Sequence record: NC_049395.1
Strand: one strand, 5' to 3'
Length of the DNA: 30,584 nucleotides
From: Escherichia phage ESSI2_ev015
The stretch's first letter is position 1; each line of letters opens with the position of its first letter. The notes under the pieces are model-generated. The model was not told where the DNA came from. It saw nothing but the letters and a program-made list of their open reading frames with translations, and did not search any database. The position numbers were made by a program, and so were the translations under genes. This document shows positions 237 to 9,398 of the stretch, one piece after another.

Positions 237-1940
237 TCAGGCAATTATATTCTGGTACTTGCTCCGGGTCTGCCCGGCTTTCGTCGCCGTCTGTGTAAAC
301 TCGGCGGCATTGGTTGGAGTCCCAACGGTGGGGTGTGAATGGTTCGCGCATTGCTGCGCCAGTTCTGCCAGTAAATCAATAGTGTCCAGCATCATGGTCA
401 GGGCGTTGATACTCTCGCTGCCAATATGGACAGTTGCCCCCATGACCTGCTGACCGCCAGCGGCCACTGATTTACGCAGTGCGGCAATCTTCTCTGTCAG
501 GCTTTCGCCAACCTCCACGGCTACAGCACCGCCCACTTTAGTGGACTGCTGTCCTGCTATGTCCGTTTCTTCGTTTCCTTCAATACTGGCCAGCCTGTTT
601 CCTTTCACCGCCTGGCTATAATCACCGGCGCTTACCTGCTGGATGGCTCCGGCCAGCAGTGTGGCGGTTCCCAGTACCGTGGTTTTATCCGTGGCTTTCA
701 CCGTGGTTTCACGGCTGACCAGTTCGCGCTGTTCCGTATCGGCTTTTACGGTTCGCGCCATCGATGTTTCGCTGATGGTCTGATCGGTCTGCCTTACCCA
801 GTCGCCCGCCTGAGTCACCCTCTGGGATACTTCTTCCCGCTGCTGCTGCAACTGTTCACCGGGTTTAACGTCCGGCAGACTGGTGCCATCCGGTAGCGTC
901 TGCCTGATAAAAGGTTTATCCGGTCTGCCTCCCGTGAATGCAACCTCAACCAGCGTCCCTTCTGGCGGAAACTGAAACATACCTGAATCATTCCCGGCCA
1001 TTGGTACCGGCAGCGGCACCGCTGAATAAACAGGCGTCTGATTGTCCGGGTTTCCGTCTGCGTCAAGCAGCTGCACGTCCACGGCGTAACGTGGCCGAAA
1101 GGGATCGGCAAAGTTACCGCTTTTTACCGGCTCTGAATGCGCCACGACTCTGGCCATCTTTGGCAAATGAAGCCCGGATGCCAGTTCCGGGTAATGGCTT
1201 TCAATCTGCCGTTGCGCCGGTGTTTTCTGCAAAGGTTTACCCGTTGCGCGGTTTCTCGGCGTCCATGTGATCGCCATCGTGTCATTAGTCAGGTGAACTT
1301 TAGTCACGCGTTCACCGTTCATCTCCACCCCTGGCCGCATAGTCTGGATCACTGGTAATGTCACAGAGTTACCGCCAGCAGCCCCCTGGCTGAACTCTGA
1401 CGGGATTTCTACGTGACGACCGGCAAACAATGACTTTTCTGCGCCGCCGACGTAAAGCGAACCATCAGGCAACTGGTACCAGATGTAATCCAGGATACTG
1501 AACGCCCTGCCCAGATTGTTCAGCAACTGATAACCAGTACCGTTATGGGTAAAATGTGGGATGGGGGTATCGCTGTACTGTGCATCAGGCACACTGACCG
1601 TGATCCCGCTGTTTTCTTCCAACCAGCCCGCAATTTCACGCAAAGTCGGGTGTTGAAACGAACATGGCCACATCCTTTCAAACACACCTACCAGCTCACG
1701 AATGAACAGACGCTGAAAACCGTTTTCTGCGGGCTGCGATCGCTCCACATACCCCGTAAACCAGCGCAAAAGCAGATCGGTATACCCCACATCCAGCCGC
1801 ACCAGTTTTCCGGTGTAATCGGTTGTTGTCTCTGCGGTGATGAAGCCCCGGCCGCAGCTGTTCAGCTCCAGTACCAGGCTGGCATCCACCAGGTGAACTT
1901 CATCCGTTGAAAGGTAAAGGCGTTTTACTGGTTTCATCAT
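237..1940 (-). CDS. Putative baseplate hub/central spike fusion (gpD+gpV-like, VgrG-like)
   Basis: 567 aa, last gene of late operon. Residues ~310-345 (MFQFPPEGTLVEVAFTGGRPDKPFI) resemble the gpV/gp5 OB-fold spike motif; helical C-terminal region ends in HSHPTVGTPTN (His-containing tip). Start ATG overlaps stop of upstream gene by 1 nt. Assignment by motif and position, not by search. Confidence 0.45.
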   Translation of the reverse strand: MMKPVKRLYLSTDEVHLVDASLVLELNSCGRGFITAETTTDYTGKLVRLDVGYTDLLLRWFTGYVERSQPAENGFQRLFIRELVGVFERMWPCSFQHPTLREIAGWLEENSGITVSVPDAQYSDTPIPHFTHNGTGYQLLNNLGRAFSILDYIWYQLPDGSLYVGGAEKSLFAGRHVEIPSEFSQGAAGGNSVTLPVIQTMRPGVEMNGERVTKVHLTNDTMAITWTPRNRATGKPLQKTPAQRQIESHYPELASGLHLPKMARVVAHSEPVKSGNFADPFRPRYAVDVQLLDADGNPDNQTPVYSAVPLPVPMAGNDSGMFQFPPEGTLVEVAFTGGRPDKPFIRQTLPDGTSLPDVKPGEQLQQQREEVSQRVTQAGDWVRQTDQTISETSMARTVKADTEQRELVSRETTVKATDKTTVLGTATLLAGAIQQVSAGDYSQAVKGNRLASIEGNEETDIAGQQSTKVGGAVAVEVGESLTEKIAALRKSVAAGGQQVMGATVHIGSESINALTMMLDTIDLLAELAQQCANHSHPTVGTPTNAAEFTQTATKAGQTRSKYQNIIA

Positions 1941-2485
1941 TAACCCAAAGCATCATTGACGGGCTTCAGCACTTTGCGTTCAAACCACGTCAGTTTTTCT
2001 TCATCTTCTCCGGCAGACTGGCCACCGGACTGTCCCACACTACCGGCAGTCTGTTTTTTTGCGGTCGTCTTACCTGTTGCCCTGGCCTCTCGCTTTTCCT
2101 GCACGCTGATATGTTCCGCCAGTGTGAATGTCACCAGCCAGGCCATTTTCCCGTCCTGCTGGGGTGCATCCAGCATTCCGCTGAACGTTGCTTCACGAAA
2201 ATTAACAGCACGGGCAACTTCATGCGCCACTCGGTACTTCTGACGATTACCACTGGCATCGGTAGCACTGGCCAGTTCAAAAATACGCTTCAGTATTTCA
2301 GGCTGTTTAAAAGGTATTTCACCGCTGATCCGCAGTTCCTTTCCCTTTGCTCCCTGCTCTGATTTTGTTGTGGCACTGGTCTGGCCGGACTGATCTTTAT
2401 CCTGAAATTGCTGTGAAACAGTCACCCGCATGTTTTTCAGCTGGATGGCTTCGCCATTAAGCGCCAGTGTCGGGATCGAAGTCAT
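1940..2485 (-). CDS. Uncharacterized late-operon protein (181 aa)
   Basis: ATG with AAGGGA Shine-Dalgarno upstream; overlaps upstream ORF by 29 nt and downstream gene by 1 nt (translationally coupled). No motif I can assign. Confidence 0.5.
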   Translation of the reverse strand: MTSIPTLALNGEAIQLKNMRVTVSQQFQDKDQSGQTSATTKSEQGAKGKELRISGEIPFKQPEILKRIFELASATDASGNRQKYRVAHEVARAVNFREATFSGMLDAPQQDGKMAWLVTFTLAEHISVQEKREARATGKTTAKKQTAGSVGQSGGQSAGEDEEKLTWFERKVLKPVNDALG

Positions 2486-3182
2486 GAATCATTCCCTTTA
2501 TTCCATCAAGATTATCGCCAACCAGCATCATGGCAGCTGTGTAAACGGCAGACTGCTGCGGAATGTCCTTCACCAGTTCCAGTAACGTGGTACCGGTGTC
2601 TCCGCTGGCAGTAAAAACCCACGCTCTGGCACTCTTCCCCTGTAAATCATTCAGGCCGCTGGCCACATCACTGATAAGCTGGTCACGCAGCTGCGTGAAC
2701 TCGCCCAGCTGTTTTTTCAGCCCTTCGATATCAAACCCGGCACCCGCCGCCTTTTGTGCCTGGCTGATTGCCGCAGCAGATAAAGCTGCCCTGCTGGTTG
2801 GTACAGACAGCGGAATGGACGCAGGTAACGCAGCGGCGGTTTTCGCAGGGATCTGCATCTTTTCAATAGCCAGCGCTGCGGCGGATTGCGCCAGCCGTTT
2901 GACCTGCATGAATGCCGGGGCGGGGAAAATCCCGACCAGGTTATTCAGGCTGGCCATAAAGTTTTCCTGCGTCTGTCCGGTGACCATCATAATCACCACA
3001 TCCGCATTCCCCCCTGTTCCGGCCAGGCGTTCAGCAAGATAGCGAACGGCATTAACCGGGCTGAGATATGCCCCGTTCGCTGTCTGCTGTCCCAGCCCAT
3101 AAATCCACGGATGCGCAGGGACGATCGAACAGTTCAGCGCAGCAACAGAATCCGTGAAGGCCAGACGTGCTTCACGCCACAT
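2457..3182 (-). CDS. Uncharacterized late-operon protein (~241 aa)
   Basis: Track ORF 2457-3218; internal ATG at 3182 (MWREARL...) preferred because it has a GGAGG Shine-Dalgarno and overlaps the tail-fibre-assembly stop by only ~11 nt. No recognisable motif. Confidence 0.45.
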   Translation of the reverse strand: MWREARLAFTDSVAALNCSIVPAHPWIYGLGQQTANGAYLSPVNAVRYLAERLAGTGGNADVVIMMVTGQTQENFMASLNNLVGIFPAPAFMQVKRLAQSAAALAIEKMQIPAKTAAALPASIPLSVPTSRAALSAAAISQAQKAAGAGFDIEGLKKQLGEFTQLRDQLISDVASGLNDLQGKSARAWVFTASGDTGTTLLELVKDIPQQSAVYTAAMMLVGDNLDGIKGMIHDFDPDTGA

Positions 3183-3759
3183 TTCCGGGCACCTCCGGCC
3201 ACACAATTTCCGGCGCATCTTCCGGTTGAATACGGTTCAGTAAAACGCGGTATTTTTTCCATGCGGTAAGCAGCAGTGCTTCTTCTTCGGTCGCCATGTC
3301 TAAATCAACGGCATCCTGCAATGTGGCAATAGCGTCATTGGCCTGTTTAAGCAGTCTTTTCTTTTCGGCGTCTGCCTCGCTGACTAATGCAATTCGCATG
3401 GCCTCCGCATCATCCACCCACGCCTTACCATTCCATTTTTGCCAGGCATTAGCCGGTGCTAACGTGGTTGTCCCTTCCGGGTAAGCGCCTGGCTCGGTGA
3501 TCACCAGTTCATTACCGTTTTCTGTATCAAACACCACCTCACCACGATGATCCTCACGGGAAATCCATCTTTGCTTCTCTGAATCAAAAATTGCCACAAA
3601 CCCCGCTTTGTTTACCGGTGGTTTTATTGTGGTGCAGTTGGCTGGCAGTCCGGTATGCGCAGGTATAAAAGCGTCACCCGAACCAATAAATTCATTCGTG
3701 TCTGAACGCAGGTTATAAACAGTAACTGTTTGATCGGTTTCACTCATTTTAAAAGTCAT
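3172..3759 (-). CDS. Tail fibre assembly chaperone (Tfa/gpG-like)
   Basis: 195 aa directly after the tail fibre gene with TAATG stop/start overlap; size, position and C-terminal region typical of tail fibre assembly proteins. Confidence 0.65.
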   Translation of the reverse strand: MTFKMSETDQTVTVYNLRSDTNEFIGSGDAFIPAHTGLPANCTTIKPPVNKAGFVAIFDSEKQRWISREDHRGEVVFDTENGNELVITEPGAYPEGTTTLAPANAWQKWNGKAWVDDAEAMRIALVSEADAEKKRLLKQANDAIATLQDAVDLDMATEEEALLLTAWKKYRVLLNRIQPEDAPEIVWPEVPGNVA

Positions 3760-5333
3760 TATGCGAGTCTCACTATGTAGTTAAATGCAATGTTCTTAAC
3801 GGTCGTTTCTGCGTTGCCCGACGCGGCAATGGTTATTACATGACTGTGTTCACCTATTGCTACAGTATGAGAATGAGCACCAATACCTACGGTATGATTG
3901 TGTGCGCCAATACCTACTGTATGAGCATGGTTGCCAGCCGACCCCGTATTACCAGTTGTTACGTTATCGCCGCCCTGACCTCTATTGATATCCCCGTTTT
4001 GAGTGGCCTGCCCCTTAACATATGTATGTGTATGCGCACCAGTCGTATTCGTTGTTTTGGTTCCGTAGTCAAATGTACTGGTGGTTTTAGTACCGTAATC
4101 AAATGATGATGTTGCTTTTGTCCCCAAATCCGTACTGGATGCACTGGCGGTGTGGGCATGGGATTTATTGCCATCATCTTCATAGGAGAGAACTGCGCGG
4201 CCGTCTGGTTTCCCTTTGATTGTCTGGCGGCGCATGTCAGTAATAACACCCGATGGATACGCAGCAGCTAGCAAAGGATATGCCGCCGTATTAAAAGACT
4301 GCCCCTGCATAATTGCCCATCCAGTAGGTGGGATATCTGTTGGCCATGGAAGCGGCACACCAACCGGCAGAACGTCACTGCGACTTAAAACGGCCAGTTC
4401 ACCCAGATCCAGACTTTTTCTTGCTTTTACCTTATCGTTAACATCAGCAAGGTTTGCATCCTTACGCAAAAAATCGCTGCTGGCCTGCTGTTCTCCCAGG
4501 CTACCTTTTGGCCGTAAATCCGTGATGTTGCCATCCACATCAATGCTGGCCACAGCAAACACATAATGCTGAACTCCGTTCTGAACGTAATCAGCAAGGT
4601 TTGCAGCCACCGTGATTTTGCTCTGCACATTCCAGACACTGATCAGCGTCCCTGTCCAGCACACATCCAGCCAGACTTTTACCGGCTTTGTCGTCACCGT
4701 AATATTCTGATTCGCAGCCAGTGACGCACGAAGTCCAGCCACATACCCCGTGCCTTTCGTGACAAAAAACTGATTGCCGGTTTTGGCTACCAGATACCCG
4801 TTACCAAAAAACGCCGCCGCGCCATAAATATCTATATTTTCCAGGCGCTGGCGCTCATCCATTCCGGCCATACGCGCAGTAAAATCAATCTGCCAGGTTT
4901 CAGCGGGTGTATTAATCCCGGTTTCCGTTTGTGCGCCGTTGTACTCCATCAGAAACGAGCGGGTCAGCACGTTCCCCTGTTGCCCTTCTTTTGTTTTCAG
5001 TTTCTGCTGTGATGGTGCATGGACAATCATTGCCAGCGTACCGCTGGCCTTATTTAGCAGACCGATCCAGTTAAAGCTGAAATCACCCACATCTGCGCCC
5101 AGTACTACGGAATAGACCACCCCGTTTTCATTCACCACACCCGTGCGGGTAACAGACTGCCGGTGAACAATCTGTGCTGTCGGGGGCAACGCTTCATTGC
5201 GGTCAACAGGTGTATCCGGGTTTAAATTCGGCACACTGGCAAAAACAAATTCGTCCAGTAGTACCGGTTCACCCGTTGCACCCTGCTGTGCTTTCCAGTT
5301 TTCAAACGCCAGTGTGATGGCTGTCTGTGACAT
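3759..5333 (-). CDS. Tail fibre protein
   Basis: 524 aa; C-terminal tandem peptide repeats ([15 protein letters not shown] x3; [14 protein letters not shown] x3) rich in His/Gly/Thr, typical of phage tail fibre distal regions; follows baseplate genes. Confidence 0.75.
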
Positions 5334-5343
5334 AAAAACCTCC

Positions 5344-5931
5344 TTACAAACTCGCGCTGAATGTTGCGCTGCGGGCTTCCGTCCCTGCTAACGTCGCCGG
5401 GTAAACCACATATTCCCCCTGATCCCACCCAGCCCTGATAACCAGGCTTTCAGACGTGATCACCTCAAACTGATAACGGCGGCATGTTCGCCCGTACTGG
5501 CGGATTATCTGGATCAGCAACTGCGTGTTGTCTGCAATCTGGCTGTCTGTAACCCGAACCAGAATCACATCCCAGTCGATACCCGGTTGCCGTTCTAACA
5601 GCTCCACATAACCAATCCCCAGCCGTTCAAAGATATTGATAAACCCCTCTACTGAACCGGCATCCCGCGCATTCACAAAGGCAAAAGCCACGCGTTTGCG
5701 GAACAGGGTCAACGGTTCACCATCAAAGCGGGTGATATCCCGGTCATAAGCCAGCAGGTTCAGTAATGCCGGTGTACACGTCAGCGGATCAAACTGATTC
5801 ATTGGCCAGGTAACCCAGCCGTAAACCTCAGCCCAGAACCGCCGCGCCGTTTTCAGCAATTTCCCCGGTTCGCCTTTATTCATCCAGGAAGGCAAGACCA
5901 TCCCGGCCAGCTTTTTCATGAACTCATTCAT
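5344..5931 (-). CDS. Baseplate/tail protein (gpI / Mu gp48-like)
   Basis: Track ORF begins with TTG at 5937; nearest ATG at 5931 (MNEFMKK...) chosen; sits between the J-like gene and the tail fibre. Family assignment by position only. Confidence 0.45.
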
Positions 5932-7108
5932 TCTCAATATTCACCGTCAGTGATTTCAGACGCGGCACGCTCAGTTCGCTGGTAATGTCTCCCAACGAAA
6001 ATGTCAGTGATTCCGTCTGCGCAAAGGTTTTATGAATTTCCCGCCCCAGTTGCGAAAAGGAAAACCGCGAATATGGCCATGTCTTTCTGACGTCATAATC
6101 AGCATTTTCACGAAAGGCACAGCGGATCATGTTTTCAATGCCGCCCTTCAGCGTTTTCACTTCTTCATCACTGAAGTTGTTCAGATTTTTGACATAAACC
6201 GTGACGACCAGATCGTGAAGCGTTTCCGGCATGGGATAGCACTGCATATCATCACCATGCCCGTGGTGTCCCTGCGTGTTGATATAGTCATTCACCGCAT
6301 CCACGAACGGCGCTGATGCCACACCACTGTCCAGTAATAAAAAGGCGTTGGCTGTTCCTGGCCCCCTCGGTGCTTCATGCTCAAAGAAAATCCGATCGAT
6401 ACTCAACCCGGCAACACTGGCGATCATTGAGCGATAAACCGCATCAGTGTGGTAATTCCCCACCAGATTGAACTGATTGCGGCAACGCTCGCGCAGTTCA
6501 TCATCACTTTCCTCGTCAGCCCCCGGCACGGTCAGCCAGTTTTCCTCACTGGCTACATGGCTGATACCGCTGACCGCCACCGGCAGAATGCGGTAATATC
6601 CGGGCGCAAGGTTATACGCGCCCCCGGTGCCGGTGGCTTTCACTGGCAGTAATGCGCTGGCCGCACCGGAAGCGATCACCACATCCTCAGTGGTGGCCAG
6701 CTCATACACTCGCCCGTTAATGCGTTCTGTCTGGATAATCGTCCCGGCTTTGACCGTCACAACGGCCTTTGCATCTTCTTTGAAGAAGCGGATCATCCCC
6801 TGTGCAGCGCTCGCCGGTTTTGCCGTGACGTTCACCGCCCAGGCCAGCAGACGCAACATGCTCCCGCTGGCTGTGGCCACAAACATATTGGCCAGCACGG
6901 TTAACACCAGAACGTCTTTAAGCCACATCACCGGGGCGGTCACAATGGCGGTGATTAATCGCCAGAACGGTGACATTCGGGATGTATTGGTGATAATTCC
7001 CTCATCTGCTGCAATCGCATTGAAGCGTTCCCGCACTTCGGCTTCCGTTACCGGCATACCGCTATCTTTCACCACTTCTTCAAAATCAACCTGCGGTTTT
7101 TCCGTCAT
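5924..7108 (-). CDS. Baseplate J-like protein (gpJ / Mu gp47-like)
   Basis: Track start is GTG; ATG at 7108 (MTEKPQVDFEEV...) has AGGTGGA Shine-Dalgarno and an ATGA overlap with the upstream stop. ~394 aa, position and size fit baseplate wedge J. Confidence 0.55.
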   Translation of the reverse strand: MTEKPQVDFEEVVKDSGMPVTEAEVRERFNAIAADEGIITNTSRMSPFWRLITAIVTAPVMWLKDVLVLTVLANMFVATASGSMLRLLAWAVNVTAKPASAAQGMIRFFKEDAKAVVTVKAGTIIQTERINGRVYELATTEDVVIASGAASALLPVKATGTGGAYNLAPGYYRILPVAVSGISHVASEENWLTVPGADEESDDELRERCRNQFNLVGNYHTDAVYRSMIASVAGLSIDRIFFEHEAPRGPGTANAFLLLDSGVASAPFVDAVNDYINTQGHHGHGDDMQCYPMPETLHDLVVTVYVKNLNNFSDEEVKTLKGGIENMIRCAFRENADYDVRKTWPYSRFSFSQLGREIHKTFAQTESLTFSLGDITSELSVPRLKSLTVNIENE

Positions 7109-7434
7109 AAATCCACCTGCGCAGAGATCCCGCCAAAATCGTATGTACTCGCGGTTACCCACAGCCGCTTCTGACTTTCTTCACTGATTTCCACCGTACC
7201 CGGCACAATGCGTTCATCATCTTCAATCAGTAATTCCATGCGGGTAAAAATATCCGCTCTCATTGTCGGGCTACGTTCGGCAATTAATTCCGTCGCTAAC
7301 CCACTTTCAATAATGGAATGAATAATGTCCTGCCCGATACTTTTTCGGTTATTACATAATTCAGGTTCATTACCGGTATTCAGAACAAAGTCACCGCCCT
7401 GAATCAGCAAATCGATATAAAGAACATCACTCAT
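7105..7434 (-). CDS. Small baseplate protein (gpW / gp25 / Mu gp46-like)
   Basis: ~109 aa; ATG at 7434 overlaps tape-measure stop (ATGA) with AGGAG upstream; immediately precedes the J-like gene as in P2 W-J. Confidence 0.45.
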   Translation of the reverse strand: MSDVLYIDLLIQGGDFVLNTGNEPELCNNRKSIGQDIIHSIIESGLATELIAERSPTMRADIFTRMELLIEDDERIVPGTVEISEESQKRLWVTASTYDFGGISAQVDL

Positions 7435-9398
7435 GCGCCAAGCTCCTGCCATTCCATAAGCTGGGATGGAGAAAGTGCTTCTTTGGTATGGAAATGCACT
7501 TCACCAATTTTCCGGCTGTTATCGGTTACGGATTTACTGTTGCTGCTGATTGTTTTGCTGATACCACCTTTATCCACACCTTTTAAATCACCACCCGTTG
7601 ACAGTGTATTTCCGGTTAATGGCTGCGTGGTTTCACTGGCCAGTGAAATATCCACGCCGGGAATTTTATTCAGTTTCTGAACAATCCAGTTCCACGACTT
7701 AAGAAATCCCCCTTTGATTGACTTCCAGACATTATCAAACAGCGACATAATGCCGGTGGCCATTCCCTTTAGCGCCTCAGACGGTGAAAATCCTGTCAGC
7801 AAAGAAATAAAGCTGTTCCATCCTTCACTGATATATTGCCAGGCTGAAGCAAAGATCCCCGCCAGCCATTTCACCACGGCGGCACATGTCTGGAAGGCTT
7901 CGGTATTCACCACCGCTGTTTTTATCGTGTCCCAGTGCTTAACCAGCAGATAACAACCGGCAACCAGCAGTGCAATGGCACCAATCACAAGCAGGATCGG
8001 CCAGCTCATCAGGTTGATACCAATTCCGGCCATTATTGCGGCCATGCGTACCGCCAGTAACGCACCGCGCAAGAACTTCAGCGTGGTATTCCAGGCGATT
8101 ACCGCTATTTGTGCCAGCCAGACAGTGGCCGTGTAGATTTTAGTAACCGCCGTTAACGCCACCCAGACCCCGCGCAATCCCATCATGATGAATCTGGATA
8201 CCCCCATCACGATATTGGCCACCGCACCCACGGCGGCAAAGCTCAGTAATGCCATCGACGCATAACCAATCACACGGGCAATGTTAGGAAATAACTGCAT
8301 CCAGCGGGCAAAGGTCTGCCCCATATCAGCCAGGCGATTCAGAACCGGATACAGCACCGGGATCAACGTCAGTCCGATCACGGTTTGAATGGCTTTCAGA
8401 ATTTGCACAAAGCGATCCCACGGCTTAACCATTTTTTGTGCCATTTCCTGGGTACGCTTCAGGCCGTCCGCGCCGCCCAGTTCGGTGATGTTCCGCTGAA
8501 GTAACGCGACATTGCCGTAAAGATGTTTAACCACTGCCGAACTGTCACCAAAGGCTGCATCCAGCTCCGCCTGGGCTTTCAGGTTCCCTTCAAGGCTTTT
8601 GCCATATTTGCCCTGCAACTTGATCAGCATTTCAGGCATGGACAGCATTTTGCCGGTAGAGTCAGTAAAGGACAGCCCCAGCTTTTTAGCGCCATCAATC
8701 GCACCGGTCATAAACCCTTCATAGGCGCTGCTGGCTTCCGTTCCCAGCGTCCGCTGAAGTTGCCCCAGCACGGCCAGCTGTTCATCCAGCCCCACGCCGT
8801 AGTTAGTCCCGACACCGCGCGCACCTTCCATCAAATCCTTGATAGTGGCCATTTCTGTGCCAAAGGTTTTGCGCATATAAACCATCTTGCCCGCCAGCTG
8901 TTCGGCAAATTCAACCTTACCCAGTCTGGCCGCATCGGCGGAAAAGTTACCGAACATCTGCCCCATAAATTCCGCCGTGTCCGCCGCAGTGGACTTGAGC
9001 GCAAACGCCAGGGTATTGGCGACTTTCGTCACCTTCGGCAGCTCATTACCCGTCAGTCCGGCAATGGAAGCGTTAATATTTTCCGTGGATCTAACGAACT
9101 CCACCGCGCTTGCGCCATAGGTTGTACTGAAACGCAGGGCATCACGCTGAACTGTCTTAAGCGCGGAATCATCGATCCCTTTTGCGGCGGCATCATTCAG
9201 CGCGTCATACATTTCAATTGCCGGTGATAACGCGCCTTTGATCGCCATCCCGACACCGGCCAGCGCCACCGCGCCGCCGCCAATCTGCATAAAGGCCGCT
9301 TTTGATTTTTCCGCAAAGCCGGTGACGTTACCCTGCGCCTGTTTTAACGGGCGGGATAATTTATCAATCAGGCTTAATGTAAAATCTAATTGTTTCAT
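7431..9398 (-). CDS. Tail tape measure protein
   Basis: 655 aa, Ala/Gly-rich helical N-terminal half plus hydrophobic segments (e.g. LLSFAAVGAVANIVMGV); lies directly downstream of the frameshifting chaperone pair. Confidence 0.8.
   Translation of the reverse strand: MKQLDFTLSLIDKLSRPLKQAQGNVTGFAEKSKAAFMQIGGGAVALAGVGMAIKGALSPAIEMYDALNDAAAKGIDDSALKTVQRDALRFSTTYGASAVEFVRSTENINASIAGLTGNELPKVTKVANTLAFALKSTAADTAEFMGQMFGNFSADAARLGKVEFAEQLAGKMVYMRKTFGTEMATIKDLMEGARGVGTNYGVGLDEQLAVLGQLQRTLGTEASSAYEGFMTGAIDGAKKLGLSFTDSTGKMLSMPEMLIKLQGKYGKSLEGNLKAQAELDAAFGDSSAVVKHLYGNVALLQRNITELGGADGLKRTQEMAQKMVKPWDRFVQILKAIQTVIGLTLIPVLYPVLNRLADMGQTFARWMQLFPNIARVIGYASMALLSFAAVGAVANIVMGVSRFIMMGLRGVWVALTAVTKIYTATVWLAQIAVIAWNTTLKFLRGALLAVRMAAIMAGIGINLMSWPILLVIGAIALLVAGCYLLVKHWDTIKTAVVNTEAFQTCAAVVKWLAGIFASAWQYISEGWNSFISLLTGFSPSEALKGMATGIMSLFDNVWKSIKGGFLKSWNWIVQKLNKIPGVDISLASETTQPLTGNTLSTGGDLKGVDKGGISKTISSNSKSVTDNSRKIGEVHFHTKEALSPSQLMEWQELGA

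Follow-up and report, generated by a model that had tools for sequence, protein, structure and literature searches.

The tail fibre gene of Escherichia phage ESSI2_ev015 lies on the minus strand of a 30,584-nucleotide (nt) stretch of DNA (sequence record NC_049395.1), the whole of which is referred to here as the window, and the C-terminal quarter of its 524-residue product carries two blocks of tandem repeats. These repeats are ordinary structural units of a known, structurally solved tip module that holds out a variable loop; they are not a slippage-prone switch. In all probability the two blocks form the up-going and the down-going halves of a needle, the trimeric receptor-binding tip of the phage T4 gp37 or lambda Stf type, and the fibre has a common but uncrystallised 3/4-layer arrangement of that module. 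For annotation of the window this settles the fibre end as a tip of the T4-gp37/lambda-Stf type, for which six metal sites are predicted. It is the hypervariable loop, and not the repeats, that most probably determines receptor specificity, and the loop at positions 3936-4025 (~30 residues) is the place to seek host specificity.

The original prediction, made from the sequence of the window, had placed the repeats in the distal, C-terminal part of a tail fibre, and both the minus-strand reading frame of 524 residues and its homology to the T4 gp37 tip confirm this. It had further suggested that slippage or recombination between the repeats might change fibre length or receptor specificity, and had named a standard conserved domain, along with an invariant copy number, as what would speak against such a role; a conserved domain of solved structure is what occupies the region.

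Homology of the fibre end to the T4 gp37 tip

Residues 321-524 of the fibre match chain A of PDB entry 2XGF, the receptor-binding tip of T4 gp37, over chain residues 28-242 with E=1.4e-65 (phmmer against PDB) and are a close homologue of T4 gp37 residues 785-1026; by tblastn the identity to T4 gene 37 is 54.8% over 204 residues. The alignment with 2XGF runs nearly residue for residue through the collar, the first HxH motif, two GTK units, the last HxH units and the C-terminal strand. Numbering derived from it agrees with the published T4 residue identities, so that fibre residues H434 and H436 fall at the place of T4 H929 and H931, and residues 437-466 at the place of the T4 tip. In T4 gp37 the collar domain D10 comprises residues 811-881 and 1010-1026, and seven iron atoms are coordinated along the needle (PMC6957217), one on the trimer axis at each of seven HxH motifs (PMC6957217, PMC11705849). 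H929 and H931 bind iron and are essential, and mutagenesis has assigned contacts with lipopolysaccharide (LPS) and OmpC to tip residues 933-953 (PMC6957217). The needle has been described as elongated, six-stranded and antiparallel (PMC7291167), and the HxH motifs as octahedral iron sites (PMC11705849).

The fibre of the window has six HxH motifs, two of them isolated (residues 392-394 and 434-436) and the other four consecutive, further downstream, in 9-residue units of consensus G-x-H-x-H-T-V-x-I (3909-3935, 3882-3908, 3855-3881 and 3828-3854). Between the two isolated motifs stand three 10-residue GTK units of consensus D-Y-G-T-K-T-T-x-x-F (4101-4130, 4071-4100 and 4041-4070). The repetition is far above chance: Tandem Repeats Finder gives the HxH block a period of 27 nt, 2.6 copies, 75% matches and a score of 79, and a separate repeat search finds three copies at a spacing of 27 nt in this block and a spacing of 30 nt in the GTK block. 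The repeats first described as three copies of a 14-residue His-rich unit are therefore real but consist of four consecutive 9-residue units, and the second unit does occur three times, with a period of 30 nt and not 27. Their range had been put at 3840-4110, which is the right region but truncates the repeats at both ends, cutting into the last HxH and the first GTK unit of a module that spans 3828-4160.

The module is abundant: a search of one database matched 1118 proteins at E<=1e-10, a second database contained 783 matching cluster representatives (clusters at 50% identity), and among phage records it occurs in 309, those of T4 gene 37 and of lambdoid side tail fibres included. In an alignment of 36 homologous sequences with a mean column identity of only 39%, none of the 12 histidines in the six HxH motifs varies. 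This invariance and the homology to the T4 gp37 iron sites make metal coordination, which had been raised for the HxH repeats from other fibres, the best-supported reading of the motifs, and by homology the fibre should hold six metal ions per trimer.

On the model of T4, each chain would run outward from the collar through HxH motif 1, the three GTK units and HxH motif 2, form a short variable loop at the far end of the needle, and return by way of the four 9-residue HxH units until the final strand rejoined the collar. In the trimer, each HxH motif would be present three times and so surround a metal ion on the three-fold axis (an iron in T4) with six histidines, and the six predicted metal sites would rivet together a six-stranded antiparallel needle in which a GTK unit going up pairs with one 9-residue spacing coming down. 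The needle would be a rigid and conserved scaffold, whereas the loop between its arms would contact the receptor and vary among phages, and the chain would fold only with the help of the Tfa-type chaperone, whose gene comes next downstream. That the chains form trimers, bind metal and contact a receptor is predicted here from the structure and genetics of T4.

Some results weigh against this structural reading. An AlphaFold2 monomer model of the C-terminal 214 residues, built with the 36-sequence alignment, reached a mean predicted local distance difference test score (pLDDT) of 57.5 and a predicted template modelling score (pTM) of 0.21, low values that are expected for an intertwined, metal-bound trimer. 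The HxH spacings of the fibre (42, 35, 9, 9, 9) differ from those of the crystallised T4 protein (32, 14, 37, 14, 9, 9), so that the proposed layer-by-layer pairing derives from covariation and not from a structure. Finally, trimerisation of the window fibre and the presence and identity of its metal are argued by analogy with T4.

Coupled copy number in the two arms of the needle

The covariation was found by reducing each protein to the spacings between its successive HxH motifs. In this way 224 homologues were parsed; of the 268 sequences, made up of 266 proteins plus the fibre of the window and the T4 reference, 43 had no anchor motif or were incomplete, and were counted neither way. All but six of the parsed homologues (218 of 224) fit one of two mirror-symmetric spacing patterns with n = 2-6. 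The first pattern consists of a spacing of (12+10n), the tip, and then n spacings of 9; the second is the first with one extra mirrored pair of spacings flanking the tip (14...14, or 12...12 in one case). In these 218 proteins the count n of ascending GTK units equals that of descending 9-residue HxH spacings, with 77 proteins having two layers per arm, 121 three, 16 four, 2 five and 2 six. A table of ascending against descending counts is purely diagonal except for one protein among 219, in which a His-to-Tyr substitution interrupts the spaced run. Random pairing of the arms gave a mean of 96 matches and a maximum of 117 in permutations, a contrast that is not a probability because the sequences are related by descent. 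Five size classes with no off-diagonal member would nevertheless require several independent concerted changes.

A candidate for such a change is provided by two syntenic fibre genes from different metagenomic runs (L008:732-1796 and L010:1501-2451), which have 91% nt identity and an identical tip peptide and differ by exactly two in-frame indels, one of 60 nt corresponding to two GTK units and one of 54 nt corresponding to two HxH units; the pair looks like a concerted change of needle length. As a separate observation, long-needle relatives (L008:2410-3296, L010:3065-3951) carry directly downstream of tfa, on the opposite strand, a 657-residue acyltransferase with Acyl_transf_3 and SGNH domains, which may be an O-antigen-modifying conversion gene beside the receptor-binding genes.

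The symmetry of the arms can also be seen within a single protein. In the fibre of the E. coli EC101 prophage (L007:1088-2695) an identical 15-residue peptide, GAHTHSVSGTAASAG, is found on the ascending and on the descending arm, and the two DNA copies that encode it agree at only 28 of 45 positions, with serine codons as different as AGT and TCG among the mismatches. These copies point to symmetry at the level of the protein without repetition at the level of DNA. The low DNA identity between near-identical peptide units may itself be selected, as a means of suppressing deleterious slippage or recombinogenic repeats.

The simplest reading of the mirror-symmetric spacings is that each ascending GTK unit packs against one descending 9-residue interval, in which case altering a single arm would throw the needle out of register. 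Coupling of the two copy numbers would thus explain the lack of simple slippage variants. It is also the observation of wider reach, since it gives a simple rule for needle length from sequence, and if the rule has not been described previously, both the length and the metal content of a needle could be read from sequence only.

A further and tentative step, which we consider possible but rather doubtful, is to regard the needle as a quantised, stackable ruler built of two to six paired layers (a 10-residue GTK unit up, a 9-residue HxH spacing down) with or without the extra mirrored 14-residue layer. Such a ruler would gain or lose layers only through paired, matching indels ~150-200 nt apart. 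If true, this would suggest that needle length is tuned to the depth of the receptor under O-antigen or capsule, and would offer a design rule for the engineering of fibres of chosen length. As for the link first proposed between the repeats and fibre length or specificity, needle length does differ between homologues, which have from two to six paired layers, but specificity most likely lies in the loop.

Tip variation, cassette exchange and alternative explanations

The close relatives of the fibre number seven: the phages ESSI2_ev040, ESSI2_ev239 and ESSI2_ev129 and four E. coli prophages. Over fibre and tfa genes the nt identity is 98% to Escherichia phage ESSI2_ev040 (Peduoviridae, Quadragintavirus; 30,597 bp) and 86-94% to ESSI2_ev239, ESSI2_ev129 and several E. 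coli prophages. ESSI2_ev040 has the same gene order and an identical C-terminal 204 residues, and it differs by a few per cent over the N-terminal two thirds of the fibre gene. At the nucleotide level it (L001) is 100% identical from ~nt 780 of the fibre gene to ~nt 100 of tfa and 93-98% identical over the first 780 nt of the fibre gene, a pattern that would imply a recent exchange within the gene. ESSI2_ev239, ESSI2_ev129 and the four prophages carry other tip loops. A comparison of copy number across relatives, which had been proposed as a check on slippage, gave a divided answer: the number is the same in six of the seven, the seventh (EC101) having a T4-type needle that is a wholly different cassette, and it does vary across the 224 homologues, although only in concert.

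Identity to relatives changes sharply along the gene. It amounts to 96-98% at the nucleotide level in the N-terminal region and shaft (residues 1-320; 84% in L006), 80-83% in the GTK block (residues 402-431; 58% in the T4-type relative), 31-37% in the tip (residues 437-466) and 76-81% in the descending HxH block (residues 467-502). Six relatives have a different tip, and in four of these the C-terminal strand from residue 503 is again 97-100% identical, the remaining two having 92% and 74%; the whole Tfa gene is 94-98% identical in relatives with different tips. Mismatches in the repeat blocks are mostly at third codon positions. The loop is hypervariable in the wider family as well, with 77 distinct tips of 30-46 residues among 115 homologues of the commonest architecture.

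It follows from the segment identities that phages exchange needle and tip as a single unit, ~3828-4160. Crossovers would fall on one side in the conserved collar/HxH1 block, on the other in the C-terminal strand, and a cassette that is moved whole keeps its two arms matched automatically. Because the tip varies without corresponding change in the Tfa gene, the chaperone likely recognises conserved parts of the module. The collar region (residues 321-389, gene nt 961-1167, window ~4167-4373) is a separate divergent patch of 81-86% nt identity in L003, L005 and L006, and the block between this patch and the needle cassette (residues 390-401) is 100% identical in L003 and L005 and 89% in L006; the collar and the needle-plus-tip seem to have been exchanged independently. 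The cassette at ~3828-4160 is thus a natural unit of exchange, with Tfa unchanged, of use in host-range prediction or fibre engineering in P2/HP1-like coliphages, while the general knowledge of such fibres stays as it was.

Such exchange raises the alternative that the conserved repeat motifs ("His boxes") are mainly short homologies that guide the swapping of tips between phages, and that their structural role is secondary. The region is clearly mosaic, with a divergent patch that starts at ~nt 1173-1219 and stops abruptly at nt 1506, just after the last HxH unit, in a gene otherwise 97-100% identical, and T4 itself is said in the literature to owe this end of gene 37, as well as gene 38, to a lambda-like temperate phage (PMC3157838). 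However, the breakpoints are away from the tip and the repeat blocks travel with it, at ~80% identity to those of relatives, and the invariance of the histidines and the mirror rule are constraints at the protein level that DNA homology leaves unexplained. A guiding role fits the structural reading if it is a by-product; it does not as the primary function, for which it appears unlikely. Recombination as originally envisaged holds, therefore, for the exchange of needle plus tip as one cassette, and is not favoured for the repeats as its primary guide.

Considerably less probable, and to be given very little weight, is a contingency locus in which tandem DNA repeats slip at replication and the resulting change of copy number switches fibre length or specificity within a population. 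The repeats are indeed tandem and in frame, with 27-nt and 30-nt periods, and homologues with more or fewer units exist. In 1996 Tetart and co-workers reportedly described T4 mutants of altered host range that carried duplications within this stretch of gene 37, reportedly with "His boxes" at the duplication junctions. The DNA units are far from the near identity first ascribed to them, however, as they agree at 56-74% of nucleotides between HxH units and at 53-70% between GTK units (53-74% in all), and the longest exact direct repeat is 11 nt (GTAGGTATTGG) against a maximum of 10 nt in shuffles that preserve mononucleotide composition. Even in the long-needle variants the units reach at most 87% nt identity. 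Nucleotide identity among the units is not above their amino-acid identity, and the repeats are therefore old and maintained by selection on the protein. Added to this are the stable copy number in six of the seven close relatives and the lack, among the parsed homologues, of any unpaired change in one block, the substitution noted above being the sole departure among 219; a single slip thus appears not to survive selection. Ready slippage is not supported, in view of the low identity of the units, their stable number and the fact that the blocks change only together.

Less credible still is the proposal, published for HxH-bearing fibres as the "Ferrojan horse" (PMC11705849), that fibre-bound iron acts as a ligand shown to siderophore receptors of the host for attachment. 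The six metal sites predicted per trimer would suit it, but by homology to T4 the metal would be buried on the three-fold axis of the needle, in T4 it is the tip loop that makes the receptor contacts, with LPS and OmpC (PMC6957217), and the HxH positions are invariant where residues linked to specificity vary.

Least probable of all, to the point of being negligible, is diversification of the tip, with the repeats as part of the device, by a diversity-generating retroelement or by an invertible segment of the Mu G/P1 C type: genes that are otherwise nearly identical do differ greatly over a short segment, but both devices were rejected for the window since the 336-nt needle-plus-tip cassette has no second copy in its 30.6 kb, where other matches reach 16 nt at most, and lacks flanking inverted repeats, none longer than 23 nt being present in region 1500-7000, since the list of open reading frames (ORFs) holds no oppositely oriented alternative fibre end or second tfa downstream, and since the variation among tips includes length and is not confined to adenines but affects every base type.

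Gene context and comparison with known systems

The 524-residue fibre begins with a Phage_tail_fib domain (PF12571, residues 3-158, E=3.3e-32 in Pfam), which is followed by the shaft and then by the T4-gp37-like tip. The PF03335 phage tail fibre repeat stays below its gathering threshold in the window fibre (16.4 bits against 20, E=0.0099, best stretch residues 387-400), and a precomputed PF03335 match is present in some homologues. An 88-residue plus-strand ORF at 3840-4106 was rejected as a gene, being merely the antisense reading of the repeat region and held open by repeat composition. The fibre belongs to a minus-strand tail module with the order tape measure, DUF2590, Baseplate J, P2 gpI-like, fibre, Caudo_TAP chaperone (directly downstream of the fibre gene), 253-residue ORF, ORF34-like protein and spike (Table 1). 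The 253-residue ORF, between tfa and the HP1 ORF34-like baseplate gene, has a shorter annotated version of 241 residues in relatives. The 567-residue "baseplate protein" is probably the tail spike, and the placement of its gene after the fibre genes, at the edge of the window, is unusual in comparison with P2. The 30,584 nt contain no tRNA genes and, being close in length to the complete 30,597-bp genome of ESSI2_ev040, may represent a whole small phage genome of the P2/HP1-like kind.

Table 1. Coordinates of the fibre gene, its predicted parts and the neighbouring tail genes in the window
Feature	Position	Strand	Basis
Tail fibre gene, 524 residues	3759..5333	-	ORF list; PF12571, PF07484, PHROG tail-fibre families; 98% nt identity to ESSI2_ev040 fibre
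Collar domain core, residues 325-369	4227..4361	-	Pfam PF07484, E=5.4e-08, 33.1 bits against a cut-off of 24
Region homologous to crystallised T4 gp37 tip (collar, needle and tip), residues 321-524	3762..4373	-	phmmer against PDB
HxH motif 1, H392-A-H394, base of ascending arm	4152..4160	-	Ungapped alignment with T4 gp37 H883/H885
Three 10-residue GTK units, ascending arm, residues 402-431	4041..4130	-	Repeat detection, 30-nt period
HxH motif 2, H434-T-H436, last predicted metal site before tip	4026..4034	-	Positional equivalent of T4 H929/H931
Hypervariable tip loop, residues 437-466, putative receptor-contact segment	3936..4025	-	Low nt identity; position of T4 residues 932-953
Four 9-residue HxH units, descending arm, residues 467-502, HxH motifs 3 to 6	3828..3935	-	Repeat detection, 27-nt period
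C-terminal strand returning to collar, residues 503-524	3762..3827	-	Last 14 residues identical to T4 gp37 C-terminus
Tail fibre assembly chaperone, Tfa/gp38 type, 195 residues	3172..3759	-	Caudo_TAP PF02413, E=5e-36; phrog_105, E=4e-84
Tape measure protein	7431-9398	-	Tail module
DUF2590	7105-7452	-	Tail module
Baseplate J	5924-7162	-	Tail module
P2 gpI-like	5344-5937	-	Tail module
ORF without assigned function, 253 residues	2457-3218	-	No Pfam match; phrog_1677 (unknown function) only
HP1 ORF34-like baseplate protein	1940-2485	-	Tail module
gp5/V-like spike, 567 residues	237-1940	-	Weak matches to phage V/VgrG OB domain and gp5 C-terminal repeats

Among known systems, the T4 short tail fibre gp12 and other Collar-domain fibres are the more distant, since they share the Collar domain and align in the collar only; the short-tail-fibre structure 9CUY matches the collar region with E=4.6e-05. 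gp12 too has an HxH-bound metal ion on its trimer axis but is without the long needle of repeated HxH and GTK layers. Lambda and lambdoid Stf fibres have in common with the window fibre both the C-terminal tip module and the Tfa-type chaperone, the identity to the lambdoid phages HK629 and 4W being 53% across the full 204 residues, and the C-terminus of lambda Stf has been predicted to resemble the T4 gp37 tip (PMC7291167). Lambda Stf differs in its N-terminal attachment and shaft, whereas the PF12571 N-terminus of the window fibre is fitted to the baseplate of a contractile tail.

The comparison of solved structure is T4 gp37 itself (PDB 2XGF; Bartual et al. 2010), in which collar, HxH, GTK units, HxH, tip loop, 9-residue-spaced HxH units and C-terminal strand follow in the same order, the C-terminal 14 residues are identical, and the chaperone gene is likewise directly downstream. 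The T4 needle has seven HxH motifs, two GTK units and an extra 14-residue-spaced HxH in each arm, as against six motifs, three GTK units and no extra pair in the window fibre; its tip loop is unrelated in sequence, and it ends a fibre of 1026 residues rather than one of 524 residues from a small P2/HP1-like temperate phage. Given the origin proposed for the end of T4 gene 37 and for gene 38 in a lambda-like temperate phage, the module and a Tfa gene side by side on a temperate P2/HP1-like phage are the expected arrangement.

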